The notes: generated by a model not told the origin, from the letters alone. A DNA stretch of 64,000 nt from a virus (IMGVR_UViG_3300038673_000220:1-64000), one strand, 5' to 3'. Numbered from the stretch's first letter, positions 3,230-63,547 are shown. Program-made: numbers and translations.

Positions 3230-4267
3230 ATGAATATTTTACAAAGTAAACTTAACCTTATTTTAGATGGTGGTTTGGGATCATCGGGTAAAGGCCTCTT
3301 AGCTGAGTATCTTGGATTGACTAACCATGTTGATATAGCGATAACATCAGCAGCAAGTAATGCTGGTCATTCGTTCATCTATCATGGGAAGAAGAATATT
3401 TCCAAATACATCCCAGTATCAGGTATAATAAACAAACGATCAACCATCTATCTTTGTTCTGGAGCTATCATCAATCCAAATATTTTCATAAAGGAGGTCG
3501 AGCATTTCGATATTGCACCTGATAGAATTATCATCCATCCGAATTGTGCTGTTATAGATGATGATGATATTCTTAATGAAAAAGATAAGGATAGCGCTAC
3601 AACGAAGTTGTCATCAACTCAATCTGGTGTAGGGAGAGCTTTATCTCGGAAGATCTTAAGAGAATCTGAATTAGCTGGATCTAATCCTATACTTAAACGA
3701 TTCACTCAAGATTTCGATCTTCAGTATTTATTGGATCAAGGTTGTACAGCTCTTATGGAAATCCCACAAGGTATGGACCTTAGCCTAAATGGTCCTTTTT
3801 ATCCTTATTGTACATCTCGTGATATTTCTGTAAGCTCAGCTTTGAATGATGCTCAAGTTCATCCATTCTATCTAGGAAAGGTATGTTGTGTTATAAGGAC
3901 TTTCCCAATACGAGTTGGGAATATCAAAGATGAGAATGGAAATGAGATCGGGTACAGTGGACCTTTCTATGATGATGCTGAGGAATTGTCATGGAAGGAT
4001 ATTGGTGTTGATCCAGAAATAACAACCGTAACAGGTAGAGAGAGACGAGTCTTTGAATTTTCAATGAAGCAATATCGAAAGATGATTAAGTCATTCCGTC
4101 CTGATTATGTTTTGTTGAATTTTGGTAATTATCTTGAATTAGATCGATTAGATGATCTCGTTAAACGATTACCTAAAGTAACTCACATCGGACTTGGTCC
4201 AGAAGTGAGTGATATAATTACGATTAAAGAATTCAAAAATGCTGTTAAATACTCAAGAATAAAATAA
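3230..4267 (+). CDS. purZ: PurZ-type adenylosuccinate synthetase homolog (N6-succino-2-amino-2'-deoxyadenylate synthase)
   Basis: GSSGKG where PurA has GDEGKG (Asp to Ser); SNAGH, STQSG, YPYCTSRD, RTFPIRVGN, TTVTGRERRVFEFS; LNFGNY where PurA has TKLD; short 345-aa length as in PurZ. Confidence 0.8.
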   Translation: MNILQSKLNLILDGGLGSSGKGLLAEYLGLTNHVDIAITSAASNAGHSFIYHGKKNISKYIPVSGIINKRSTIYLCSGAIINPNIFIKEVEHFDIAPDRIIIHPNCAVIDDDDILNEKDKDSATTKLSSTQSGVGRALSRKILRESELAGSNPILKRFTQDFDLQYLLDQGCTALMEIPQGMDLSLNGPFYPYCTSRDISVSSALNDAQVHPFYLGKVCCVIRTFPIRVGNIKDENGNEIGYSGPFYDDAEELSWKDIGVDPEITTVTGRERRVFEFSMKQYRKMIKSFRPDYVLLNFGNYLELDRLDDLVKRLPKVTHIGLGPEVSDIITIKEFKNAVKYSRIK

Positions 4268-4286
4268 TACTTAAATAGGAATAATC

Positions 4287-4481
4287 ATGGAAAATGTGAA
4301 TGAGATAAGAGCATTTTATCCAGATGGTAGCAATCAATTGGGTCTTGATTACGATGGAGATGAGTGGAATGTTCAAGATCAACAACATCATCGTATGATA
4401 CCTAAAGATATTCGAACTAAACGAAAAAATAAACGTAAACTTACAAAACAATCTCGTCGGAAAAATAGGAGGATGAATTAA
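4287..4481 (+). CDS. small basic hypothetical protein
   Basis: RBS AGGA; K/R-rich C terminus. Confidence 0.6.
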   Translation: MENVNEIRAFYPDGSNQLGLDYDGDEWNVQDQQHHRMIPKDIRTKRKNKRKLTKQSRRKNRRMN

Positions 4482-4822
4482 TGTTGCATAATGATAATAA
4501 TATTCGTGACAATACAGTTAGATATAGTCGTGGGATTATTGCGGGTTGTTTTAATTATGATGATATTTATTCCAGTCTTACGATATTGTCTTCGTTAAAT
4601 GGTATTTTCTCAATAAATAGTGAAACTGGGAAATTAGCACTCACTGTTCGGAAAGGTGATACGGTCGTTTGTATTGATTCTAATCAATCATACGTTAATA
4701 TCATTGGTAAGAGTGATTCCGAAGATGATTGGGTAGAAATTGGGTCTCTGTATACTGATGAAGAATTGGAATTGATTAGTAAATACAATCCAAATATTAT
4801 ATCAGTAGATGGATCTCAATGA
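4481..4822 (+). CDS. hypothetical protein
   Basis: TAATG coupling; RBS GGAGG. Confidence 0.6.
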   Translation: MLHNDNNIRDNTVRYSRGIIAGCFNYDDIYSSLTILSSLNGIFSINSETGKLALTVRKGDTVVCIDSNQSYVNIIGKSDSEDDWVEIGSLYTDEELELISKYNPNIISVDGSQ

Positions 4823-4945
4823 TCTGCAATCATTAAACGTCAATTCAAAATTCGACAAATAGCCAGAAAACAACGACGAAAACAATTCAATCGGTCGGAT
4901 TTGATTATGAGGTTAAAGATATTATGATTAATCATTGTCATTTTA

Positions 4946-5341
4946 TTGGAGATTAAATTTAAGGGGGTTGACCGAATGCATTTTACTATAAGTAGTTTAT
5001 CTGGAAATTATCCTATGATAATAGGGTTACTATCCGTTCTGCTTGCATTAATTATTATAAATGTTATTGTTGTTTCAATAATACTATCTAATAAGTCAAA
5101 AAGAAACAATCGAATATCAGATCTGGATAAGGAATGGTTAATAAAATTACTCATCGAATCGCAATTAGAAGAAATAGATGAAGAAAGTATCGAATTTCTA
5201 ATATCTCAGATGTCCAATGAAACATTGTATGTGATGACTAAACTTTTAGGTGAGAATTCTGATAAAGATTTTCATCAGAATGATCTAATACTTTTTATAT
5301 GCACCACGATCGCGAATGAATCACAATTTCGGTTACAATAA
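4946..5341 (+). CDS. membrane protein
   Basis: One hydrophobic segment; likely start at ATG 4976 after AAGGGG. Confidence 0.55.
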   Translation: MEIKFKGVDRMHFTISSLSGNYPMIIGLLSVLLALIIINVIVVSIILSNKSKRNNRISDLDKEWLIKLLIESQLEEIDEESIEFLISQMSNETLYVMTKLLGENSDKDFHQNDLILFICTTIANESQFRLQ

Positions 5342-5386: not shown

Positions 5387-5423
5387 ATTTTTAAACGATA
5401 TTAATGATAATTAATTTTTCTAT

Positions 5424-6026
5424 ATGAGGAATATCATCGTGACAAACGCAAAAATTGTAACAAATGGTATTGAACAGTATGAGTCATCTAAGAAAAATAA
5501 TCGAGGATACTCTGAACTTAATAATAATTATTATCGTGATAATCTCAAAAACATCTATGACAATTTGTATAAGAATATAGCTTCCAAAAAGCATTTAACG
5601 ATTATAGGTATATTCAATTATGCTGATACTGAAGAATTTAAACAACTTGGTATAGGTGGACGTAATCATGTACTTATATTCTGCAACATATGTAAAAAAT
5701 TCAGTATAATAACCATCGCATCGTTTCTAAGATCGAAACATAAATGCAAATATTGCTTTTACAATGCGTTGAAAAAGCGTCGACACAATAAACCAGAAAA
5801 AGCTTCATACACTTTCGAAGATTTAGTTAGAAAAGGTAAAGAAGTTCATGGTGATATCTACACTTATATTGGTAAGGATAGACATCATAATGGTGCGTCT
5901 CGTATTATTTATAAGTGTAATATATGCGGTCATATCAATAATCAATTGGCTCATAATCATTTTAAAGGAAGTGGGTGTTATAATTGTAACATCCTTAAGA
6001 GATCTTTAAATACTAGGAGAACTTAA
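5424..6026 (+). CDS. zinc-ribbon repeat protein (DUF723-like), no nuclease domain evident
   Basis: CNICKK, CKYC, VHGDIYTY, CNICGH, HFKGSGCYNC. Confidence 0.6.
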   Translation: MRNIIVTNAKIVTNGIEQYESSKKNNRGYSELNNNYYRDNLKNIYDNLYKNIASKKHLTIIGIFNYADTEEFKQLGIGGRNHVLIFCNICKKFSIITIASFLRSKHKCKYCFYNALKKRRHNKPEKASYTFEDLVRKGKEVHGDIYTYIGKDRHHNGASRIIYKCNICGHINNQLAHNHFKGSGCYNCNILKRSLNTRRT

Positions 6027-26589: not shown

Positions 26590-27363
26590 ATGGAATCAAC
26601 TATGAATACATACAATGTATCTGTTAAAGAAAAAAAATTCATAAAGACGAAAGCTTCCAATATACTTGTCCAGACAGTTATTTACAATGTCAATGATCAT
26701 GATAACATAAATGTACCACTAATGACATCAGCCAATATTATACTTCCAGACATTTTTGAACTTTATACAAAAAGTGAGATAGAGGAAGAATCTGAACAAT
26801 TTGTTATTCAATCGATATCAAGTACTGTTGATAAAATATCCATTAAAAGACATGATTTAGCTGAATGCCCTGTCTGTGGTGCATCAGTAATAGTCATTGA
26901 TAATCATGTAGTGTGTCTTAATCTTGATTGTTGTGCTACAGTTGACCTTATTAAGATACGAATGGTGAATATGTTTCCGAATCTCCCAATGCGGATGATG
27001 ATGGATCTTGTAGAATACGTTTTTAATAACTTCGAATTAGAATGCTCATTCATAGGAGTTATTCGACACATTATGAATCATTGTGATGAATATTTCCATG
27101 AGTTTGAAACTCTAACTAGTATGATAGTTGACAGTCTTCGAGATGTTCATCTTGAATGGTTCTTTTATGCGACTATAGGACGACCTTTACCTGAAGAATT
27201 AAGTCTTATTGTAAAAAAATATTCTGATAAGTTGATATATATGATAGAAGATTACTATAACGACCTTTCCAAAATCAAAAACATGTCTCAAAGATCTTTA
27301 GCTCTTTGTAAGCTATCGATTGCTTCAAATAAGGAATTCGTTGAGCTGGTATCAAATATCTGA
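26590..27363 (+). CDS. protein resembling the zinc-finger region of NAD-dependent DNA ligase
   Basis: IILPDI...CPVCGA...CLNLDC; no KxDG adenylation motif. Confidence 0.45.
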   Translation: MESTMNTYNVSVKEKKFIKTKASNILVQTVIYNVNDHDNINVPLMTSANIILPDIFELYTKSEIEEESEQFVIQSISSTVDKISIKRHDLAECPVCGASVIVIDNHVVCLNLDCCATVDLIKIRMVNMFPNLPMRMMMDLVEYVFNNFELECSFIGVIRHIMNHCDEYFHEFETLTSMIVDSLRDVHLEWFFYATIGRPLPEELSLIVKKYSDKLIYMIEDYYNDLSKIKNMSQRSLALCKLSIASNKEFVELVSNI

Positions 27364-27381
27364 TCCAAAATTCAGATATAT

Positions 27382-28773
27382 ATCATACTAAGAAGATGAC
27401 CCTTTCCTTTAGGTGAGGGGGTACTGAGAATCATAAATTATCCATACAGAACGCATAATCCAAAAGGATCAATCATGAACCTAACAGCTCAGGTAAAACT
27501 GGAGCCTGATGCTGATCAGGCTTTATCATTAACTCGAACCATGCAGCTCTTTAATGATGCTTGCAACTTTGTAGCTAAATTAGCTTTTAAGCGTAAAGTA
27601 TACCATCCAGTAGCGTTGCACAATCTCAAGATCAGCGACAGCACACTTTATTACCATCTTAGAGCTACTTATCCAAAGCTCAATTCGATACAAATCGAAC
27701 TGGTTTTTCGTAAGGTGGCTGATGCTTATAAAACACGCTTAAAACGCTTAAAGAAGAGGAAGAAGCTAAAGCATCCTTGCAGGTTCAAAGAGATGAGCAG
27801 CATTCCTTATAATCATCTTATCAGTAACTATAAGCTTATCGTAGCTTCGGCTGGAGATAGAGCAATCACTCCACACCTTTCAGTCGTTTTAGTTGACGAT
27901 GCTCGATACAAACGTTCTAAGATCGATTACATCGTAGCTGATCATCAGCGTAAGATATTAGCTAACGCTGTTCCTGGAACGTTTGGCGGAGAATCGCGGA
28001 TCTCATTCCGAAAAGGCGCTTTTTATATCAACATCCCAGTGGAGCAATGCGTTGCTCCAGAAGCTATCGATCCGATCAGATCGATTGGAGTGGATCTTGG
28101 AGTAGTGAATATCGCAACTACTTCGTATGGTAAGATCTTCAGTGGAGAGCTTATCGAAAATAAGCGGTTGAAGTTCCAGAAGCATCGATCTTCATTACAA
28201 AAGTGTGGATCGAAATCAGCTAAGCGTCGGTTGAAGTCAGTAGCTGGTAAAGAAGCACGTTTTCGCAAAGATCTCAATCATTGCATCAGTAAAGAGCTCG
28301 TTGTTGCGGCTAAAGGCACAAGTTCACGGATCGTGTTGGAGGATCTCACCAACATCCGAGAACAGACAACGGTTAGGAAGCAGCAACGAGCTCGTCATCA
28401 TGGTTGGAGTTTTGCTCAATTACGTGAGTTCATCGGCTACAAAGCAGCTATGGCTCAAGTGGAAGTTAAGGTTGTGGATCCGAGCTACACGAGCCAAAGA
28501 TGCAATAACTGCGGAAGCATCAGTCGATCGAACCGAAGAAATCAGTTCCGATTCAGCTGCAAAAGTTGCGGTCATGATGCTCATGCAGATTACAACGCCG
28601 CTTGCAATCTAGCTTGGTTAGGAGATAATGGTGCTGAACGATTCGTTAAGGATGAGTTGATGCACTAAAGACTATGTTGGGGCTGTAACTGTCAACCAGC
28701 CTTATGTAGGGGTGCTATCGGAGCAATGATAGAGCTACTTACAAGCCTCTTCCTTTAGGTGGAGGTTGTTGAC
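27382..28773 (+). mobile_element. non-autonomous IS200/IS605 (IS1341-type) element, copy 1
   Basis: Appears identical to 45896..47287; left hairpin CCCTTTCC-TTTA-GGTGAGGG, right hairpin CCTCTTCC-TTTA-GGTGGAGG, ends in TTGAC; no TSD, no tnpA; left end is 27382 or 27384. Confidence 0.9.
27475..28668 (+). CDS. tnpB: TnpB RNA-guided endonuclease
   Basis: RuvC triad GVDLG / VLEDL / ADYNAA; TSQRCNNCG...CKSCG zinc finger. Confidence 0.95.
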   Translation: MNLTAQVKLEPDADQALSLTRTMQLFNDACNFVAKLAFKRKVYHPVALHNLKISDSTLYYHLRATYPKLNSIQIELVFRKVADAYKTRLKRLKKRKKLKHPCRFKEMSSIPYNHLISNYKLIVASAGDRAITPHLSVVLVDDARYKRSKIDYIVADHQRKILANAVPGTFGGESRISFRKGAFYINIPVEQCVAPEAIDPIRSIGVDLGVVNIATTSYGKIFSGELIENKRLKFQKHRSSLQKCGSKSAKRRLKSVAGKEARFRKDLNHCISKELVVAAKGTSSRIVLEDLTNIREQTTVRKQQRARHHGWSFAQLREFIGYKAAMAQVEVKVVDPSYTSQRCNNCGSISRSNRRNQFRFSCKSCGHDAHADYNAACNLAWLGDNGAERFVKDELMH

Positions 28774-28793
28774 CATTTAGTTGATATAAAGAA
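28600..28793 (+). ncRNA. putative TnpB omegaRNA/reRNA; guide CATTTAGTTGATATAAAGAA (28774-28793)
   Basis: Structured right end of the element; the two copies diverge right after TTGAC; 5' boundary approximate. Confidence 0.7.
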
Positions 28794-28894
28794 GATACCA
28801 TTGAGACGATATGGTAGGACTTCTTTGTTTATTATTTTACAAAGATGATGTTAATGTGGCCGAATAAACGGTAAATTCAAATGAGGAGAAAATC

Positions 28895-29329
28895 ATGGCT
28901 GTAAAAGAAAAGGATTACACTGATGTAGCTAACCATATCGAAGGTGCCATGGAGCATGTTGGTACTAAAGATGGTATTGCTACATACAATGTAAAGCAAT
29001 CTGATTATATGGCTTTCATGAAAGGACGCGGTATCACTGAAGATACGATTCGTCAAGTCTCGGAAGCTGATATCGATTACATGAATGGTAATATCGTTGT
29101 TGCCAACAAGCTTCTTCTTGAAGACAATGATCTTAGTCGTGCAGTGATTAAGACTCGTTCACCGATGGGTGTTAAAGAGTTCCGTTACACTCGCAAGGTC
29201 GAAGGTCGTGCTCCAAAGACTGGTGAAGAAACTGTCAAGTTCGGTGTGGCTTCTGTGAATCTCAAGATCAGGACTCGTCTTGACAAAGATCTTCTGCAAC
29301 GTTGTTCAGAAGCTATCGAAAGAGCCTAA
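28895..29329 (+). CDS. probable abundant DNA-binding protein with an HU-like arm motif
   Basis: RBS GAGGAG; biased codon use; EGRAPKTGE resembles HU GRNPxTGE. Confidence 0.5.
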   Translation: MAVKEKDYTDVANHIEGAMEHVGTKDGIATYNVKQSDYMAFMKGRGITEDTIRQVSEADIDYMNGNIVVANKLLLEDNDLSRAVIKTRSPMGVKEFRYTRKVEGRAPKTGEETVKFGVASVNLKIRTRLDKDLLQRCSEAIERA

Positions 29330-45593: not shown

Positions 45594-45604
45594 ATATATA
45601 TTAT
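45594..45604 (+). promoter_or_regulatory. promoter motif variant ATATATATTAT
   Basis: One mismatch to consensus, upstream of an AAGGAG RBS. Confidence 0.6.
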
Positions 45605-45650: not shown

Positions 45651-45905
45651 ATGAAAGGTAGACGTAATCCGAACATTCGTTATGACAGCCCTATTCGTCG
45701 TTGGATTTCTGACAAATTACGTGAAAAAGGAATCAATGATCCTCTTCAATTCAGACAGTTGTGTTATGATTATTTTAAAGAGCATACTGATATTGATCAG
45801 AGTCGTTATATCAGTAAAGCTTCTGATTTGATGAAACCTATTTTAGGTCAATGTGTTCTTGGTAGAAAGACTGCTGGTATCATCATTGAGCATATATCAT
45901 ACTAA
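45651..45905 (+). CDS. hypothetical protein whose 3' end is interrupted by IS copy 2
   Basis: Removing 45896..47287 restores ...IIEHIISLGETHDWWKEPS* with stop at 47331-47333, directly before a terminator. Confidence 0.7.
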   Translation: MKGRRNPNIRYDSPIRRWISDKLREKGINDPLQFRQLCYDYFKEHTDIDQSRYISKASDLMKPILGQCVLGRKTAGIIIEHISY

Positions 45906-47287
45906 GAAGATGACCCTTTCCTTTAGGTGAGGGGGTACTGAGAATCATAAATTATCCATACAGAACGCATAATCCAAAAGGATCAATCATGAACCTAACA
46001 GCTCAGGTAAAACTGGAGCCTGATGCTGATCAGGCTTTATCATTAACTCGAACCATGCAGCTCTTTAATGATGCTTGCAACTTTGTAGCTAAATTAGCTT
46101 TTAAGCGTAAAGTATACCATCCAGTAGCGTTGCACAATCTCAAGATCAGCGACAGCACACTTTATTACCATCTTAGAGCTACTTATCCAAAGCTCAATTC
46201 GATACAAATCGAACTGGTTTTTCGTAAGGTGGCTGATGCTTATAAAACACGCTTAAAACGCTTAAAGAAGAGGAAGAAGCTAAAGCATCCTTGCAGGTTC
46301 AAAGAGATGAGCAGCATTCCTTATAATCATCTTATCAGTAACTATAAGCTTATCGTAGCTTCGGCTGGAGATAGAGCAATCACTCCACACCTTTCAGTCG
46401 TTTTAGTTGACGATGCTCGATACAAACGTTCTAAGATCGATTACATCGTAGCTGATCATCAGCGTAAGATATTAGCTAACGCTGTTCCTGGAACGTTTGG
46501 CGGAGAATCGCGGATCTCATTCCGAAAAGGCGCTTTTTATATCAACATCCCAGTGGAGCAATGCGTTGCTCCAGAAGCTATCGATCCGATCAGATCGATT
46601 GGAGTGGATCTTGGAGTAGTGAATATCGCAACTACTTCGTATGGTAAGATCTTCAGTGGAGAGCTTATCGAAAATAAGCGGTTGAAGTTCCAGAAGCATC
46701 GATCTTCATTACAAAAGTGTGGATCGAAATCAGCTAAGCGTCGGTTGAAGTCAGTAGCTGGTAAAGAAGCACGTTTTCGCAAAGATCTCAATCATTGCAT
46801 CAGTAAAGAGCTCGTTGTTGCGGCTAAAGGCACAAGTTCACGGATCGTGTTGGAGGATCTCACCAACATCCGAGAACAGACAACGGTTAGGAAGCAGCAA
46901 CGAGCTCGTCATCATGGTTGGAGTTTTGCTCAATTACGTGAGTTCATCGGCTACAAAGCAGCTATGGCTCAAGTGGAAGTTAAGGTTGTGGATCCGAGCT
47001 ACACGAGCCAAAGATGCAATAACTGCGGAAGCATCAGTCGATCGAACCGAAGAAATCAGTTCCGATTCAGCTGCAAAAGTTGCGGTCATGATGCTCATGC
47101 AGATTACAACGCCGCTTGCAATCTAGCTTGGTTAGGAGATAATGGTGCTGAACGATTCGTTAAGGATGAGTTGATGCACTAAAGACTATGTTGGGGCTGT
47201 AACTGTCAACCAGCCTTATGTAGGGGTGCTATCGGAGCAATGATAGAGCTACTTACAAGCCTCTTCCTTTAGGTGGAGGTTGTTGAC
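45896..47287 (+). mobile_element. non-autonomous IS200/IS605 element, copy 2
   Basis: Appears identical to 27382..28773 (offset 18514). Confidence 0.9.
45989..47182 (+). CDS. tnpB: TnpB RNA-guided endonuclease
   Basis: Same protein sequence as 27475..28668. Confidence 0.95.
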   Translation: MNLTAQVKLEPDADQALSLTRTMQLFNDACNFVAKLAFKRKVYHPVALHNLKISDSTLYYHLRATYPKLNSIQIELVFRKVADAYKTRLKRLKKRKKLKHPCRFKEMSSIPYNHLISNYKLIVASAGDRAITPHLSVVLVDDARYKRSKIDYIVADHQRKILANAVPGTFGGESRISFRKGAFYINIPVEQCVAPEAIDPIRSIGVDLGVVNIATTSYGKIFSGELIENKRLKFQKHRSSLQKCGSKSAKRRLKSVAGKEARFRKDLNHCISKELVVAAKGTSSRIVLEDLTNIREQTTVRKQQRARHHGWSFAQLREFIGYKAAMAQVEVKVVDPSYTSQRCNNCGSISRSNRRNQFRFSCKSCGHDAHADYNAACNLAWLGDNGAERFVKDELMH

Positions 47288-47307
47288 TATCAGTTTAGGT
47301 GAAACTC
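47114..47307 (+). ncRNA. putative omegaRNA; guide TATCAGTTTAGGTGAAACTC (47288-47307)
   Basis: Right end of the element plus flank; 5' boundary approximate. Confidence 0.7.
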
Positions 47308-55507: not shown

Positions 55508-58500
55508 ATGCAGCCGAATATTCCTATTCAATATTCAACTTTACGAGAGTACATTGAAGCTATTTCTGGTGCTCAAGTTACGACGTTGACGCAAACTGTT
55601 GATGCTAATTATGCAACGATGATGGGTTTGGTCAATGATCTTCAAACATCGATCGCTGATATCGAATCATTAAATGCGAATATCAGTGCGAACCCAGACG
55701 TTGTTCTTAACACTTCACATCGTCTGACTATTGCTGGTAACCCACATCATGTAACGAAAGCAGAAGTTGGATTAAGTGAGGTACCGAACTACGACTTTAC
55801 TGCTGAAGTTCAGATCAACAATGCGAAAGTTGGTATAACCCAAGCTCAAGCTGATGCTATCATTATTAACTCAGCGAAAGTTGGTATCACTGTTCAGCAA
55901 GCTGCCGATATCATTTCCAATAATGATCATCGTGCTATCGTATCTGGGAATCCACATCAGGTCACCAAAGCTGAAGTAGGTTTGGGTAATGTCCCGAACA
56001 TCGATTGTACGAATGCTTCGAATATCACTTCGGGTATTTTACCAACGAGTGTTCTTCCTCCATTAGCTATTACTGATACATATTCAGTTGCTAATGAGGC
56101 CGAGCAGTTAGCTCTTACTGTACAAAAAGGTGATATTGCTGTTCGTACAGATCTTTCAAGATCGTATATCAATCAGACTGGTGGTAATGAGGCCATGACT
56201 GATTGGCAGGAGCTCATGACTCCAACTGATCTTGTTCTCTCTGTTAATGGCTATACTGGAACAATCCAACTTGTTACTACAGATATTCCAGAAGGTACCA
56301 ACTTCTATTATACAGAAGCACGTGTATCTAACAATATTGATGTTGCTACCAATACTGCAAACCGTCACACTCACGGAAATAAAGCTATCCTTGATGCAAC
56401 AACTGCATCTTTTACTACTGAGATTTCCAACACCATCGATCTCAACTCCGCTCATCGTGAGACAACTGTAGGTAATCCGCATCAGGTTACTAAAGCTGAT
56501 GTAGGTTTGAGTAATGTACCAAACCACGATTTTACCGATGAGGTTGCCGCCAATACTGCAAAGGTCGGTATCACTCCTGAACAAGCTGCTGACATTGTAG
56601 CTGCTAATGTTCATAGAACTACTACCAGCGGTAATCCTCACGCTGTAACTAAAGCTGAAGTTGGTTTAGGTAATGTACCGAACACTGATTTTACAGCTGA
56701 TGTTCTTGCAAATAATGCCCATCGTGCAATTATTACGGGTAATCCGCATCAAGTTACTAAAGCCGAGGTTGGCTTAAGTAATGTTCCAAATCATGATTTC
56801 ACTGCCGAAGTTGATGCGAATACTGCAAAGGTTGGTATCACTCCTGAACAAGCTGATGCTATCGTAGCCAATACTGCAAAGGTTGGTATCACTCCTGAGC
56901 AAGCTGCTTCTATCGTAGCATCTGACGCTCATATTGCAACTGTTACTGGCAATCCTCACCAAGTAACGAAAGCTGAAGTTGGCTTAAGTGAAGTCCCCAA
57001 CGTTGACTGTACCAATGCGAGTAATATCACTACTGGTACTCTACCAACAAGTGTTCTTCCTGCATTGGCTATCAGTGAAACTTTTGTAGTTGCCGATGAA
57101 ACCGCTCAGTTGGCTCTCACTGTACAGAAAGGTGATGTTGCTGTTCGTACCGATGAAGGAAAATCTTACATCAATGCGACTGGTGATAACACTGCGATGA
57201 CTGATTGGCAGGAGCTCTTAACTCCTACTGACACCATCTTAAGTGTAAATGGTCAAACTGGTAACGTCATTCTAACCACTACGAATATTGCAGAAGGGAC
57301 TAATCTCTATTATACTGAGGCTCGTGTATCTGCGAATGTTGATGTTGCTCTTAATACAGCGAACCGTCATAACCATACCAATAAATCTATTCTTGATGGT
57401 ACTGAAGAATCTTTCACTACTGTATTAAAGAATAATATCTTAACCAATAATGATAAGGTTGGTATCACCACTGAACAAGCTGATGCTATCGTGGCCAATA
57501 CTGCAAAGGTTGGTATCACACCACAGCAAACTGCTGATATTATCTCCAACAACACTCATCGTGCTATCGTATCTGGTAATCCGCATCAAGTCACTAAAGC
57601 TGAAGTTGGATTAGGTTTGGTTCCGAATCACGACTTCACCGATGAGGTTGATGCGAATACTGCGCATAAGAATACTATTACTGGTAATCCGCATCAAGTT
57701 ACTAAAGCTGAAGTAGGATTAGGTAACGTACCGAATACTGACTTTACTGGTGATATCGCTGCATCGAATGCTCATATTGCAACTATCACTGGTAATCCGC
57801 ATCAGGTCACTAAAGCTGAAGTAGGATTGGGTCTTGTACCTAATCATGACTTTACAGCTGAAGTTGATGCGAATACTGCAAAGGTTGGCATCACTCCTGA
57901 ACAAGCTGCTGCAATTGTAGCGAATACAGCACACGCTGCTATCGTAACTGGTAATCCGCATCAAGTTACTAAAGCTGAAGTAGGATTAGGTAATGTTCTA
58001 AACATTGATACGACAAATGCTACGAATATTACTTCAGGTATGCTTCCTTCAAGCGTACTTCCTCCTATTGCTATCACTGATACATATTCTGTAGCAAGTG
58101 AAGCTGAGCAATTAGCTCTTGATATCCAACGTGGTGATATCGCTGTTCGTACAGATATTAATCGTTCGTACATTAATAAACTTGGTGTTAACGAAGCTAT
58201 GTCTGATTGGCAGGAGCTTTTAACACCAATCGACTCCGTTCTTTCTGTTAATGGATTCACTGGAGCTGTCGTTCTGACTACATCCAGTATTTCTGAAGGG
58301 ACTAATCTCTATTACACTGAAGATCGTGTTATCAATAACGTTGATGTTGCTACCAATACTGCAAATCGTCATAATCATGGAAATAAAGCGATCCTTGATG
58401 GAACGACTGCATCATTCACCACTGAGATCTCCAACACCATCGATCTCAACTCTGCGCACCGTTCTACTATCACCGGAAATCCTCATCAAGTAACGAAAGC

Positions 58501-61500
58501 AGAAGTGGGATTAAGTGATGTTCCTAACCACGACTTCACTGCTGAAGTTGCTGCCAATACTGCAAAGGTTGGTATCACTCCTGAACAAGCTGCATCTATC
58601 GTTGATGCAAATACGCATATCGCAACTGTAACGGGTAATCCTCATGCAGTTACTAAAGCTGAAGTCGGTTTAGGTTTGGTTCCGAATCACGACTTCACCG
58701 ATGAGGTTAATGCTGCTACAACTCATATCGCAACTGTTACTGGTAATCCTCATCAAGTTACTAAAGCAGAGGTTGGTCTGAGTGAAGTACCTAACCACGA
58801 CTTCACAGCTGAAGTTGCTGCGAACACTGCAAAGGTTGGTATCACTCAGGAACAAGCTGATGCTATCGTAGCCAATACTGCAAAGGTTGGTATTACAGTT
58901 GAGCAAGCTGCTTCTATCGTAGCATCTGACGCTCATATCGCTACTGTTACCGGCAATCCTCATCAAGTTACTAAAGCAGAGGTTGGTCTGAGTGAAGTAC
59001 CGAATGTGGATTGTACGAATGCTTCGAATATCACTACTGGTACTCTACCAACAAGTGTTCTTCCTGCATTGGCTATCAGTGAAACCTACGTTGTTGCTGA
59101 TGAGACTGAACAGTTAGCCCTTACTGTACAGAAGGGTGATATCGCTGTTCGTTCTGACCTTAATCGCTCGTATATCAACTCCACTGGTGATAACACTGCG
59201 ATGACTGATTGGCAGGAGCTCTTAACTCCTACTGATACTATTCTCACAGTTAACGGCCAGGTTGGTACTGTAGTTCTTACTACTACGAATATCGAAGAGG
59301 GTACAAACCTCTATTACACTGAAGCACGTGTATCTGCAAATGCTGATGTTGCAGCAAATACTGCAAATCGTCATAATCATGCAAATAAAGCTATCCTTGA
59401 TGGTACTGAAGAATCCTTCACTACCGTTTTGAGAAACAACATCCTTACTAATAACGATAAGGTTGGTATCACCACTGAACAAGCTGATGCTATCGTAGCC
59501 AATACTGCAAAGGTTGGTATCACTGCTCAACAGGCTGCCGATATCGTTTCTAACAATACTCACCGTGCTATCGTAACTGGAAATCCGCATCAAGTCACCA
59601 AGACTGAAGTAGGATTAAGCGAAGTACCGAATCACGATTTCACTGCTGAAGTAAACGCCAATACTGCACATCGTGGTATTTTGGAAGGTAACCCGCATCA
59701 AGTTACTAAAGCTGAAGTTGGCTTAAGTGAAGTACCGAATCATGATTTCACTGCAGAAATGCTTATCGCATTAACTCACGTTGAAACAATTACCGGTAAT
59801 CCGCATCAAGTCACTAAAGCTGAAGTAGGTCTCGGTAGCGTTCCGAATCATGATTTCACTGCTGAAGTTGCAGCCAATACTGCTAAGGTTGGTATCACTC
59901 CTGAACAAGCTGCAGCTATCGTAGCCAATACTACTCATGCTGCCATTGTTGCTGGTAATCCTCATCATGTAACAAAAGCTGAAGTTGGTCTGAGTGAAGT
60001 ACCTAACGTCGACTGTACCAACGCCTCGAATATTACTACAGGAACTCTTCCTTCAAGTGTTCTTCCAGCTATCGCTATTACTGAAACTTTTGTAGTATCG
60101 AACGAGCTTGAGCAACTTTCTTTAGATGTTCAAGAAGGTGATATCGCTGTTCGTTCTGATCTTAATCGTACCTTTATCAATATCACTGGTACGAATAACG
60201 CTATGACTGATTGGCAAGAACTCGCTACTCCTACTGATACCATTTTGAGTGTTAATGGTCAGACTGGCACTGTAGTTCTTACCACGACGAATATTGACGA
60301 AGGTACTAACCTTTATTATACAGAAGCACGTGTATCTAACAACGTTGACGTTGCAGCAAATACTGCAAATCGCCATAACCATGCAAATAAAGCTATCCTT
60401 GATGCAACAACCGCCTCTTATACGACTGCGGATGTTGATACGTTAGCTGCTGCTGATGCTCATCGTTTAACAACCACTGGTAATCCGCATCAGGTCACTA
60501 AAGCTGAAGTTGGTTTGGGTAATGTACCTAACTTAGATTTCACTTTAGATATTGCTGCGTCGAATGCTCATATCGCAACTGTAACTGGTAATCCGCATCA
60601 GGTCACGAAAGCTGAAGTAGGATTGGGTCTTGTACCTAATCATGACTTTACAGCTGAAGTTGATGCGAATACTGCAAAGGTTGGCATCACTCCTGAACAA
60701 GCTGCTGCAATCGTAGCGAACAGCGCTAAAGTTGGTATCACTCCTGAGCAAGCTTCTGATATCACTTCTAATAATAATCATAGATTAACTGTTACTGGTA
60801 ATCCGCATAATGTAACAAAAGCTGAAGTTGGATTAGGCTCTGTACCTAACCATGACTTTACAGCCGAAGTTGCTGCGAATACTGCAAAGGTTGGTATCAC
60901 TACTCAGCAGGCTGCTGATATCATTTCTAATAATGAACATCGAGCCATCATTTCTGGTAATCCGCATCAAGTTACTAAGGCTGAAGTTGGGTTGAGCGAT
61001 GTTCCTAATCACGACTTCACAGCTGAAGTTAATGCGAATACAGCTCATACTGCTATCGTAGCTGGTAATCCGCATCAGGTAACGAAAGCTGAAGTTGGTC
61101 TTGGTAATGTACCTAATGTCGATTGCACCAACGCTAGCAATATCACCACTGGTACCTTACCTTCTTCAGTATTACCTCCATTAGCAATCACTGATACTTT
61201 TGTTGTTGCTGACGAAGCTGCTCAACTTGCATTGGTTGTTCAGAAAGGTGATGTTGCAGTACGTACTGATGAAGGTCGCTCGTATATCAACTCCACTGGT
61301 GATAACACTGCGATGACTGATTGGCAGGAGCTCTTAACTCCTACTGATACCATCTTGAGTGTTAATGGCCAAACTGGAACAGTTGTTTTAACTACGACAA
61401 ACGTTGCTGAAGGGACTAATCTCTATTATACTGAGGCTCGTGTATCTGCAAATGCTGACGTAACACTTAATACAGCTAATCGTCACAATCATACAAATAA

Positions 61501-63547
61501 AGCAGTTCTTGACGCTACAAATGAATCGTTTACTTCTTCTATCTTAGCTGAAATCAATATTAACACTGCAAAGGTTGGTATCACTGTTCAGCAGGCTGCT
61601 GATATTGAAGCAAATAATTCTCATCGTTTAACTACGAGTGGTAATCCTCATGCTGTAACCAAAGCTGAAGTAGGTTTGGGTAATGTACCTAACTTAGATT
61701 TCAGTTCTGCTGTTGCTGCTAATACAGCTCACGCTAATACCGTTGCAGGTAATCCGCATCAGGTTACTAAAGCTGAAGTTGGTTTAGGTAATGTACCAAA
61801 TACTGACTTTACAGCTGATGTTGCTCTGAATAACGCTCATAGAACAACTACTACTGGTAATCCTCATCAAGTTACTAAAGCTGAAGTTGGGTTGGGTCTG
61901 GTACCGAATCATGATTTCACTGCTGAGGTTGCTGCCAATACTGCAAAGGTTGGTATCACCACTGAACAAGCTGCCGATATCGTTTCTAACAACGAGCATC
62001 GTGCAATCACCAGCGGTAATCCTCACGCTGTAACAAAAGAAGAAGTTGGTTTAGGTTTAGTACCAAACCACGACTTCACTGATGAAGTTAATGCTAATAC
62101 TGTATTGGCTCATAGTCATGCAAATAAACCTATTCTTGATGCTACAACCTCAGCCTTCACTACTGAACAAGCTGATGAAATCGTAGCATGTCATTCACAT
62201 CGTATTGATACAAGCACTAATCCTCACGGTATCACCCCGATCATGATCGGCGCTGAAACTCCAGAAGGTGCTCAAACTAAAGCTGACACTGCTGAGCATA
62301 ATGCTAATCTGTATACTGATAGCTTTGTTCTTCAATCTCCGAATTCTTTGTTATTTGAAGCTGCATTGAGAAACTCCTTGGCACTTGATAAGGGTGTTGG
62401 TATGATCAACTTCTCAAGAGCCTCTGTTGCAAATCATCTTGATCGTTACGGTATCGTTCGTGCTTCTGAAGCAAACGTTCCTCGTTTTAATAAAGATGGT
62501 TTGTTGATTGAAGGTCGGAGTACTAACTACTTTGTTGGATCTAAAGATGCTAACGTTTTTGATAAAACAAATTGTCGTGTTGAACTCAATAAACAATACG
62601 ATGCATCTTTTGAAGCTACTGTTGATATCATTTCGATCGATGTTCCTGCAACTGATTGGAAACTTTCAAAAGTTATCACTGACATGTATCTTGAAGAAGG
62701 TAAATACGTTACATTCAGTGTTCGTTTAAAATCTATCACTGATACCCAAGTTGAACTTGCTATTCAAGATTCTGCAGGTATCAACGTTGGGGATTTCGGT
62801 GGAACTAAAGTTATCACTCTGAATGAGTATCTGACTCGTTATGATTTCACTATATTCGTTGAAAACGCAACAACTGGTCATCCCGTTGTCGAGGTTCGTG
62901 GTTTAACGAAAACTGAAGGTGAAAGCTTCGGTATCGTCGATATGCAAGTTGAGCCTTTACCGTTCGTATCGAGTGTTATCGAAACTGTTGATGCGCCAGT
63001 TACTCGTGAACCTGATCGTGTTTATATTCCTTATGTTGAGAACTATCCTGGAAGCTTAGTTGATAAAACCATCAGCTTTGATGTAAATGTTATCGGTACT
63101 ACTGAAGATGTTCATCGTTGTTTCTGTTCTGGCGATCTTCAGATGTATATTGGTAACGGTACTCCTGGAAATCATATGACTCGTGTTGGTATGTCTTCTG
63201 GTGAAGAGACTGAATGGGTTGAGAAGATCGGTAAGTTCCGATTCGGTATCACCTATGATGCTACTTTACAGGAATTGAAGATGTTCCATGATGGTGAGAA
63301 AGTTGCAACGAAAACTAATGTAACTAAGGCTGATCCGCCTTTGGTTGATTCAACTTCTTATGATCAATTCCTTGCTGAAGTTTATCCAACTCTTGATCCT
63401 TCTTCTTATGGGTTAGCTATCTTACAGATCCCGCTTGATGTAATGCAAGCTACCATCCGTTTCGATACTGGTAATCCTTTTATGACTATCTCTAATATCA
63501 GGATCACTGACAAAGTGTTGACTGAGAAACAAATGCTTACTTTCTAA
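55508..63547 (+). CDS. giant repetitive tail or head fibre protein
   Basis: About 28 NPHxVTKAEVGL repeats, six WQELxTP...SVNGxTG modules, C-terminal lectin-like domain. Confidence 0.85.
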   Translation: MQPNIPIQYSTLREYIEAISGAQVTTLTQTVDANYATMMGLVNDLQTSIADIESLNANISANPDVVLNTSHRLTIAGNPHHVTKAEVGLSEVPNYDFTAEVQINNAKVGITQAQADAIIINSAKVGITVQQAADIISNNDHRAIVSGNPHQVTKAEVGLGNVPNIDCTNASNITSGILPTSVLPPLAITDTYSVANEAEQLALTVQKGDIAVRTDLSRSYINQTGGNEAMTDWQELMTPTDLVLSVNGYTGTIQLVTTDIPEGTNFYYTEARVSNNIDVATNTANRHTHGNKAILDATTASFTTEISNTIDLNSAHRETTVGNPHQVTKADVGLSNVPNHDFTDEVAANTAKVGITPEQAADIVAANVHRTTTSGNPHAVTKAEVGLGNVPNTDFTADVLANNAHRAIITGNPHQVTKAEVGLSNVPNHDFTAEVDANTAKVGITPEQADAIVANTAKVGITPEQAASIVASDAHIATVTGNPHQVTKAEVGLSEVPNVDCTNASNITTGTLPTSVLPALAISETFVVADETAQLALTVQKGDVAVRTDEGKSYINATGDNTAMTDWQELLTPTDTILSVNGQTGNVILTTTNIAEGTNLYYTEARVSANVDVALNTANRHNHTNKSILDGTEESFTTVLKNNILTNNDKVGITTEQADAIVANTAKVGITPQQTADIISNNTHRAIVSGNPHQVTKAEVGLGLVPNHDFTDEVDANTAHKNTITGNPHQVTKAEVGLGNVPNTDFTGDIAASNAHIATITGNPHQVTKAEVGLGLVPNHDFTAEVDANTAKVGITPEQAAAIVANTAHAAIVTGNPHQVTKAEVGLGNVLNIDTTNATNITSGMLPSSVLPPIAITDTYSVASEAEQLALDIQRGDIAVRTDINRSYINKLGVNEAMSDWQELLTPIDSVLSVNGFTGAVVLTTSSISEGTNLYYTEDRVINNVDVATNTANRHNHGNKAILDGTTASFTTEISNTIDLNSAHRSTITGNPHQVTKAEVGLSDVPNHDFTAEVAANTAKVGITPEQAASIVDANTHIATVTGNPHAVTKAEVGLGLVPNHDFTDEVNAATTHIATVTGNPHQVTKAEVGLSEVPNHDFTAEVAANTAKVGITQEQADAIVANTAKVGITVEQAASIVASDAHIATVTGNPHQVTKAEVGLSEVPNVDCTNASNITTGTLPTSVLPALAISETYVVADETEQLALTVQKGDIAVRSDLNRSYINSTGDNTAMTDWQELLTPTDTILTVNGQVGTVVLTTTNIEEGTNLYYTEARVSANADVAANTANRHNHANKAILDGTEESFTTVLRNNILTNNDKVGITTEQADAIVANTAKVGITAQQAADIVSNNTHRAIVTGNPHQVTKTEVGLSEVPNHDFTAEVNANTAHRGILEGNPHQVTKAEVGLSEVPNHDFTAEMLIALTHVETITGNPHQVTKAEVGLGSVPNHDFTAEVAANTAKVGITPEQAAAIVANTTHAAIVAGNPHHVTKAEVGLSEVPNVDCTNASNITTGTLPSSVLPAIAITETFVVSNELEQLSLDVQEGDIAVRSDLNRTFINITGTNNAMTDWQELATPTDTILSVNGQTGTVVLTTTNIDEGTNLYYTEARVSNNVDVAANTANRHNHANKAILDATTASYTTADVDTLAAADAHRLTTTGNPHQVTKAEVGLGNVPNLDFTLDIAASNAHIATVTGNPHQVTKAEVGLGLVPNHDFTAEVDANTAKVGITPEQAAAIVANSAKVGITPEQASDITSNNNHRLTVTGNPHNVTKAEVGLGSVPNHDFTAEVAANTAKVGITTQQAADIISNNEHRAIISGNPHQVTKAEVGLSDVPNHDFTAEVNANTAHTAIVAGNPHQVTKAEVGLGNVPNVDCTNASNITTGTLPSSVLPPLAITDTFVVADEAAQLALVVQKGDVAVRTDEGRSYINSTGDNTAMTDWQELLTPTDTILSVNGQTGTVVLTTTNVAEGTNLYYTEARVSANADVTLNTANRHNHTNKAVLDATNESFTSSILAEININTAKVGITVQQAADIEANNSHRLTTSGNPHAVTKAEVGLGNVPNLDFSSAVAANTAHANTVAGNPHQVTKAEVGLGNVPNTDFTADVALNNAHRTTTTGNPHQVTKAEVGLGLVPNHDFTAEVAANTAKVGITTEQAADIVSNNEHRAITSGNPHAVTKEEVGLGLVPNHDFTDEVNANTVLAHSHANKPILDATTSAFTTEQADEIVACHSHRIDTSTNPHGITPIMIGAETPEGAQTKADTAEHNANLYTDSFVLQSPNSLLFEAALRNSLALDKGVGMINFSRASVANHLDRYGIVRASEANVPRFNKDGLLIEGRSTNYFVGSKDANVFDKTNCRVELNKQYDASFEATVDIISIDVPATDWKLSKVITDMYLEEGKYVTFSVRLKSITDTQVELAIQDSAGINVGDFGGTKVITLNEYLTRYDFTIFVENATTGHPVVEVRGLTKTEGESFGIVDMQVEPLPFVSSVIETVDAPVTREPDRVYIPYVENYPGSLVDKTISFDVNVIGTTEDVHRCFCSGDLQMYIGNGTPGNHMTRVGMSSGEETEWVEKIGKFRFGITYDATLQELKMFHDGEKVATKTNVTKADPPLVDSTSYDQFLAEVYPTLDPSSYGLAILQIPLDVMQATIRFDTGNPFMTISNIRITDKVLTEKQMLTF
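55700..62250 (+). repeat. hierarchical coding tandem repeat (~1 kb super-unit)
   Basis: Many near-identical aatccgcatcaagttactaaagctgaagt and aatactgcaaaggttggtatcac units. Confidence 0.9.

Follow-up and report, generated by a model that had tools for sequence, protein, structure and literature searches.

Two copies of a TnpB-only insertion sequence in a phiKZ-like phage

The window analyzed here covers the opening 64 kb of a viral record of 149,134 bp and carries 2 copies of a 1,390-bp insertion sequence (IS), one lying within a recurrent 11-nt intergenic motif and the other in the last codons of a small gene. The features of the 2 loci are as follows.

27373–27383, + strand: phage-derived 5′ part of the motif, CAG followed by ATATATAT, identical to positions 5405–5415 of contig L101; the ATAT target is at 27380–27383
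27376–27386, + strand: rebuilt 11-nt core of the probable promoter, to which the phage contributes 8 nt and the element 3 nt (CAT); exact match to the motif
27384–28773, + strand: IS copy 1, a 1,390-bp TnpB-only IS200/IS605 element without tnpA, with boundaries set by the L101 empty site and by the point at which identity to copy 2 stops
27396–27419, + strand: left guide ATGA (27396–27399) and left imperfect hairpin (27400–27419), from single-strand DNA folding
27475–28668, + strand: tnpB, 397 aa, with matches to PF07282 (1.5e-21) and PF01385 (5.1e-10)
28593–28773, + strand: predicted omega-RNA-like scaffold overlapping the 3′ end of tnpB, from the consensus structure of 5 relatives and DNA folding
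28742–28773, + strand: right guide CAAG (28742–28745), right hairpin (28746–28765), and cleavage site TGAC (28770–28773)
28774–28789, + strand: predicted guide of copy 1, directly 3′ of the right end, made up of the 3′ portion of the original promoter (CAT...) plus adjoining bases
28895–29329, + strand: 144-aa gene from the ORF list, served by the probable promoter before the insertion and now 1.5 kb from it
45594–45604, + strand: promoter-class motif (T variant), PWM score 25.6, 46 nt upstream of the ORF starting at 45651 and conserved in contig L100
45898–47287, + strand: IS copy 2, identical to copy 1, 3 codons before the stop of the 45651 gene
47288–47303, + strand: predicted guide of copy 2, assigned by its position 3′ of the right end

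The record, which is about 54% complete and has a G+C content of 35.5%, encodes a phiKZ-type major capsid protein (MCP), for which the only match among cultured phages is in Proteus phage 10 (23% identity), as well as homologues of 2 non-virion RNA polymerase subunits, PHIKZ071 (1.9e-50) and PHIKZ055 (3.6e-35). The combination of a phiKZ-type MCP at 23% identity with the polymerase subunit homologues identifies the virus as an uncultured, deep-branching phiKZ-like jumbo phage that encodes a multisubunit RNA polymerase of its own. No near-identical phage turned up in the phage collection. The genome is 94% coding, with an intergenic share of 5.8%, and the genes flanking the IS could not be assigned a function from PHROGs or Pfam.

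The repeats at 27378–28773 and 45892–47287 are 100% identical, and ATATATCATAC, which the initial annotation had recognized as shared by both left junctions, occurs only at 27378 and 45892, where the 2 repeats start. The RuvC residues D207, E289, and D372 of TnpB and the 2 CxxC pairs of its zinc ribbon are invariant in 16 members of the TnpB clade, and the TnpB motifs align to those of solved TnpB/Cas12f chains. The left (27400–27419) and right (28746–28765) hairpins have one architecture, including an internal T/T-G mismatch, which is also that of the hairpins in contigs L007 and L101; there are no terminal inverted repeats. The scaffold fold includes 9 pairs with compensatory changes, observed in only 5 sequences, and Rfam returned nothing apart from a HEARO match, which was rejected as a chance hit, being below the threshold and on the wrong strand.

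The element carries no TnpA gene and the 149-kb record contains no match to TnpA (PF01797), so the element is non-autonomous; we classify it as a non-autonomous TnpB-only IS200/IS605 element with tnpB, a putative omega-RNA-like scaffold, and no tnpA. No sigma-70-like promoter was detected in the 97-nt left end. The assignment of the copy 1 left flank to the element, suggested by a 9/10 match to part of the left end in L007, was rejected because this flank is present in the empty allele of L101. As in TnpB-only (IS1341-type) members of the IS200/IS605 group, TnpB has the RuvC triad and the zinc ribbon, subterminal imperfect hairpins are found at both ends, and both inverted repeats and target duplication are absent. 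All structural features of the element are canonical for IS200/IS605, and it joins that family.

The interrupted motif is a probable early promoter

The motif in which copy 1 resides stands out from the intergenic sequence of the whole record. In an unbiased count of 9-mers across the intergenic 5.8% of the genome, the top 9-mers were pieces of ATATATAT(C/T)AT. The sequence ATATATATCAT has 6 exact matches in the window, all on the + strand (564, 9137, 12099, 27376, 35860, and 38386), compared to 0.41 expected from shuffles, none of which (0/100) reached 6. In the complete record, ATATATAT(C/T)AT is present at 17 sites, 15 of them on the + strand; 14–15 of the sites are intergenic and located 26–141 nt upstream of a same-strand start codon. 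When a promoter PWM built from 14 native sites was used to score 298,208 positions, 15 promoter-class sites reached at least 21.3, and the next best position scored 14.3. Copies of the motif directly precede both non-virion polymerase genes (the PHIKZ071 and PHIKZ055 homologues) and thyX, and the motif is also present in the related phage contigs L008, L100, and L101. In 14/14 native sites, a purine is located 7 nt after the core and is the probable transcription start site. T-rich sequence often lies upstream of the motif, and there is no conserved −35 partner.

Every RNA-polymerase-encoding jumbo phage has a conserved, approximately 10-nt AT-rich motif near −10 that marks the early promoters of the virion polymerase (PMC7598289), and the early promoter of phiKZ is an extended −10 element with T-rich sequence upstream (PMC8244752). 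The phage described here resembles phiKZ, AR9, and other RNA-polymerase-encoding jumbo phages in having such a motif before presumed early genes, including those for non-virion polymerase subunits, and in the T-rich sequence often found upstream; its motif differs from theirs in having a sequence specific to this phage group. Given that it is the dominant intergenic motif, is strand-specific, and lies upstream of genes that include 2 for non-virion polymerase subunits, ATATATAT(C/T)AT is probably the early promoter of this phage, used by the virion RNA polymerase, a role that we infer from analogy and position.

Under a different interpretation, the motif is a −10-like box for host sigma-70 or a signal for termination or replication, the restored junction has no bearing on transcription, and tnpB is expressed by read-through or from an unrecognized internal signal. 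This would accord with the many motif copies found directly 3′ of terminator-like hairpins with T runs and with the location of the site 1 motif, the one that received copy 1, between a stop codon and a hairpin. However, the strand bias, which strictly follows gene direction, and the regular spacing to ribosome-binding sites and start codons argue against it, as do the presence of the motif before polymerase genes, the lack of a conserved −35 element, and the agreement of the motif with the class known from every RNA-polymerase-encoding jumbo phage (PMC7598289), and we consider this interpretation very improbable. Use of the motif by the host RNA polymerase is possible.

Copy 1 splits the motif and restores it exactly

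The state of site 1 before the insertion is preserved in a sister strain from run SRR8327730, which is 97–100% identical around the site 1 locus. At positions 5405–5425 of its contig L101, CAG and an unbroken 11-nt core are joined directly to the sequence that lies to the right of copy 1 in the window, with no element. This empty site places the insertion of copy 1 between ATATATAT and CAT, with no bases gained or lost, and because the element itself starts with CAT, the 11-nt core was restored exactly. The initial annotation had deduced that copy 1 landed inside a motif and had reconstructed the empty site, which L101 now directly confirms; the perfect match that it reported between the copy 1 junction, read as CAG, core, and ACT, and the motif at 564, 9137, 12099, 35860, and 38386 is exact.

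The copy 1 junction has a PWM score of 26.5, which ranks 6th among the 298,208 positions, and the uninterrupted site scores 26.4. Only 3 core bases of the restored junction are derived from the element, which also places an A at the conserved +7 purine position. Since the element begins with CAT and offers a purine at the probable start, the junction is predicted to be as good a promoter as the original. The rebuilt core lies 88 nt upstream of the tnpB start, and in L101 the motif is 118 nt upstream of the 144-aa gene. At the level of the sequence, the junction of copy 1 rebuilds the promoter motif and is in keeping with the earlier proposal of a phage promoter about 90 bp before tnpB; as described below, this proposal fails for copy 2 (score of 6.4).

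Compared to other motif sites, the native context of site 1 is unusual: the motif lies only 12 nt past the stop codon of the upstream gene and is accompanied, within approximately 15 nt, by a hairpin with a T-rich run (z = −2.4). Given this setting between a stop codon and a hairpin, the site 1 promoter may be weak or have another role. In the window, this hairpin and its T-rich run are located at 28788–28835, just past the original promoter and within the leader of the gene for the 144-aa protein, and may represent an attenuator or the terminator of the upstream gene.

Target site and predicted guides

Both copies are directly preceded by ATAT. In IS608, bases 1, 2, and 4 of the guide pair with bases −3, −4, and −1 of the site. 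Following this rule, the left guide ATGA predicts the target AT?T, and ATAT is observed; the relation between guide and cleavage site holds for 4/4 ends considered, namely CAAG/TGAC and ATGA/ATAT in the element described here and AAGA/TTAT and GAAT/TCAA in a second element found in L101 (see below). In IS608, the cleavage site is read by the 4 bases before each hairpin, and altering the left guide redirects both cleavage and insertion in a predictable way (PMC3201880). Comparison of the L101 empty site with copy 1 indicates insertion 3′ of a fixed tetranucleotide without target duplication. CAT is found at the tip of the element and again just after copy 1; since copy 2 is followed by TAT instead, this does not represent a duplication. 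ATAT is the insertion target and the predicted TAM of the element. In its transposition chemistry, the element would resemble IS608, which likewise uses the 4 nt before the left hairpin to pair with a tetranucleotide and inserts on its 3′ side, and, like ISDra2, a TnpB system with omega-RNA, it would have a structured RNA over the 3′ end of tnpB and a guide taken from the right flank; the targets differ, being TTAC for IS608, TTGAT for ISDra2, and ATAT here.

The sequence of the predicted copy 1 guide follows ATAT in the empty site of L101, with a single mismatch at guide position 8. At this position, L101 has G (5423) and the window has T (28781), one of only 2 differences in 120 nt, and the G could be either a chance polymorphism or an escape from cutting by TnpB.

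Copy 2 and a third insertion lack a promoter-class junction

Copy 2 lies 300 nt downstream of the promoter-class motif at 45594, which heads the small transcription unit holding this copy. It resides in the last codons of the ORF at 45651–45905, replaces only the last 3 codons of the gene, and supplies an in-frame stop (45903–45905). Its left junction (45890–45900) matches 9/11 core positions and has a PWM score of 6.4, whereas promoter-class sites reach 21.3 or more. The short motif that the initial annotation noted inside the gene at this junction is present, as the 9-nt ATATATCAT only; elsewhere, ATATATCAT and TATATCAT occur only inside genes and on both strands. In the sister strain (last 40 nt of L100, compared to window position 45889), the left flank of copy 2 has T for C, which changes His to Tyr in the 84-aa protein, improves the core match from 9/11 to 10/11, and raises the score from 6.4 to 11.9. 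We looked for an empty site for copy 2 and found none. Copy 2 makes no promoter-class site and is probably expressed by read-through, the simplest route for a copy located downstream of the promoter-class site at 45594 and upstream of the terminator of the unit.

A repeat unitig from SRR8327730 starts at ATAT plus CAT and is overlapped by contig L100 by exactly 30 nt, from which it follows that at least 1 further copy in this run diverges immediately upstream of ATAT. This third insertion shares only ATAT and, hence, at most 7/11 core bases with the motif; its site is known by the right flank (L005) only, and this flank has no counterpart in the 149-kb record. The 100% identity of the copies, the empty site 1 in SRR8327730, and the occupation of a further site there point to recent mobility.

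There are 1538 ATAT sites in total, of which 157 are intergenic, and 47 of these 157 (30%) fall within promoter cores. With 94% of the genome coding and promoter cores holding this share of the intergenic ATAT sites, the location of copy 1 requires no special targeting. An element that seeks ATAT and whose insertions survive only outside genes should frequently end up in a promoter.

Relatives of the element and a probable helper transposase

The exact TnpB protein was found only in this phage and in 2 short run contigs, and the close TnpB clade (48–68% identity) only on large phage-like contigs. One of these, L007 (231 kb), carries a TnpA together with a TnpB that is 65% identical to the one in the window. 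In IMG/VR and in 185,579 species genomes, TnpB relatives are at most 41–44% identical, and none of them has the shared left end; a left end common among bacterial copies, which would have spoken against a link to this phage group, was not observed in any of the species genomes. Scans of IMG/VR with TnpB, the flanking proteins, and the exact left end recovered no close relative, and scans of JGI metagenomes for the empty site 1 and the left end, in data that may omit close relatives of the window, found nothing.

The relatives share an internal ACTAAGA block and the hairpin architecture and differ in the distance from tip to hairpin, in the guide (AAGA or GAGA versus ATGA here), and in the predicted target (TTAT or TCAT versus ATAT here). 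The junctions of the elements in L093 (predicted target TCAT), L007 (TTAT), and L101 (TTAT) are unlike the promoter motif. The L101 element (3490–5241, corresponding to about position 27210 of the window) is a separate, complete IS605 inserted after TTAT in a 257-aa gene, 170 bp from site 1. It encodes a 132-aa TnpA and a 378-aa TnpB, ends in TCAA, and has hairpins similar to those of the window element. Its TnpB is 22% identical to the window TnpB and its TnpA is 82% identical to that of L007; a TnpA of the L101/L007 type is the probable helper for the element described here. The short region near site 1 is a hot spot for 2 unrelated TnpB elements.

Two side observations concern other members of the clade. 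In L008 (3001–4167) and L094 (2501–3634), tnpB genes with 55–61% identity occupy a single fixed position across many contigs from related phages; these copies lack the left hairpin and part of the right end, and their TnpBs may be stranded or domesticated nucleases. In L007 (4296–4340), the element with TnpA and TnpB lies in antisense orientation between a minus-strand promoter-like motif and the gene presumably served by it. Promoter-proximal insertion recurs in the clade, without a fixed orientation.

How the element may meet phage transcription

The best overall explanation, which we favor with moderate confidence, is that an ATAT-seeking element entered an early promoter, with copy 1 restoring the promoter and copy 2 being read through. 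It starts from what is observed at the locus, namely, the anatomy and boundaries of the element, the empty site, and the restoration of the core at the sequence level. The element would transpose as single-stranded DNA and insert 3′ of ATAT. The probable early promoter core ATATATAT(C/T)AT offers ATAT 3 times, and with 3 targets per core and about a third of the intergenic ATAT sites, promoters would be the likeliest harmless landing places. Copy 1 would have entered one promoter exactly between ATATATAT and CAT, and the restored junction is expected to drive tnpB and the omega-RNA as an early transcript of the virion RNA polymerase. Copy 2, having landed in the 3′ end of a small gene 300 nt downstream of a separate early promoter, which heads the unit, would probably be read through. 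In co-infecting relatives, the complex of TnpB and guide might cut uninterrupted promoters, in which ATAT adjoins a match to the guide, and the element would spread by repair; this step is suggested by the copy 1 guide, which corresponds to the 3′ part of the promoter beside ATAT.

The resemblance of the left end to the 3′ half of the motif invites a stronger reading, according to which the left end has come to act as half of a promoter, so that any insertion beside the ATAT target assembles a promoter for the phage polymerase and each copy activates itself. When the left-end 11-mer of the element is compared with the 3′ half of the PWM, its score of 7.6 falls within the native range of 3.9–9.4 and is equaled by only 0.064% of genome 11-mers; CAT or TAT accounts for 5.2% of trinucleotides, and the next 8 nt are in the top 3.4% of 8-mers, but this left-end statistic was computed post hoc and for a single element. 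The restriction of the close TnpB clade to large phage-like contigs, with bacterial and IMG/VR relatives at no more than 44% identity, also speaks for such an adaptation. Phages of the phiKZ type transcribe their genes without the host polymerase (PMC8244752), and a resident element therefore needs a phage promoter. The C-to-T change next to copy 2 in the sister strain likewise brings the junction closer to the motif. However, the ATAT target guarantees only 7/11 core bases and no upstream context, the copy 2 junction stays at 6.4–11.9 compared to at least 21.3 for the promoter class, the other ATATATCAT and TATATCAT occurrences are intragenic and on both strands, the third insertion diverges immediately upstream of ATAT, and the junctions of related mobile elements are unlike the motif. 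On these grounds, the suggestion in the initial annotation that each insertion switches on its own TnpB is not upheld, and we regard the evolution of a self-activating left end as unlikely; adaptation of the IS to the phage polymerase is possible.

The resemblance might also have been inherited rather than selected: in an ancestor located downstream of an early promoter, a change in the left guide could have shifted cleavage to the ATAT within this promoter, the 3′ half of which (CAT, spacer, and start site) became the tip. The predictable retargeting of cleavage by left-guide changes in IS608 (PMC3201880) provides a precedent, the relatives share ACTAAGA and the hairpins while differing in guide, target, and tip-to-hairpin distance, and the tip resembles the 3′ halves of native promoters, for instance at 79777 and 45594. 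However, no intermediate has turned up, relatives with intact left ends are too few for the history to be retraced, and we give this origin only a slim chance. Under either route, selection or boundary shift, only a target that already has the additional ATAT and the sequence context upstream yields a full promoter. A working junction, if selected for, would be of advantage to the element as well as to the phage gene downstream.

A bolder reading would treat the tip as a portable half-promoter for the virion polymerase. In a TnpB lineage confined to phages that work without the host polymerase, the target (ATAT) and the first dozen bases of the element would be matched to the early promoter, such that the element docks preferentially in promoters, keeps them functional, gains expression within the first minutes of infection, and, guided by the 3′ half of the promoter, converts the intact promoters of co-infecting relatives, thus behaving as a promoter-borne gene drive between phages. 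We consider this reading conceivable, if rather doubtful.

Comparison with known systems and implications

In classical hybrid promoters, an IS contributes an outward-facing −35 and the resident sequence a −10. The copy 1 junction is similar in that it joins a half supplied by the target to a half supplied by the element's tip. Unlike in the classical hybrids, the hybrid described here points into the element, belongs to the promoter class of a phage-encoded multisubunit polymerase, and is complete only when the target is already a promoter. With respect to TnpB-guided homing and transposon retention (Meers et al., Karvelis et al.; PMC8612924), the likeness lies in the match of the copy 1 guide to the TAM-adjacent empty site, and the difference in that the only empty allele found differs at guide position 8. 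Copy 1 might thereby turn the empty alleles of co-infecting phages into filled ones. Should the phage form a nucleus-like shell, TnpB would need access to the DNA within.

The element differs from other IS200/IS605 members in its host, an uncultured phiKZ-like jumbo phage, with the nearest bacterial TnpB at most 44% identical, and in that a likely helper TnpA was seen only in the sister strain and a related phage. What is new is the host, the ATAT target, and the availability of both a filled and an empty allele, which document the splitting and exact restoration of a probable early promoter; our literature search found no published description of TnpB elements in jumbo-phage promoters. With an empty allele alongside the filled one, the locus offers a clear case from nature in which a TnpB element occupies a probable early promoter and has not destroyed it. 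Because phiKZ-type jumbo phages use their own polymerases, the locus bears on how resident selfish elements become expressed, and it yields testable predictions, namely the TAM (ATAT), 2 guides, and the transcription start. If the match between tip and promoter has been selected, the transposon would be tuned to a viral transcription system; if not, a short AT-rich target would make promoters the default safe harbor in a genome that is 94% coding.

Other features of the record

Two repeat-rich features lie apart from the IS. A 2,679-aa ORF at positions 55508–63547 of the window contains many diverged repeats of 51 nt and of about 1 kb and probably encodes a giant repeat-containing virion or fiber protein. 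Outside the window, close to the end of the record (148851–148980), there is a tandem array with a 21-nt unit, which surfaced as an over-represented 12-mer in stretches left intergenic by rough ORF calling.
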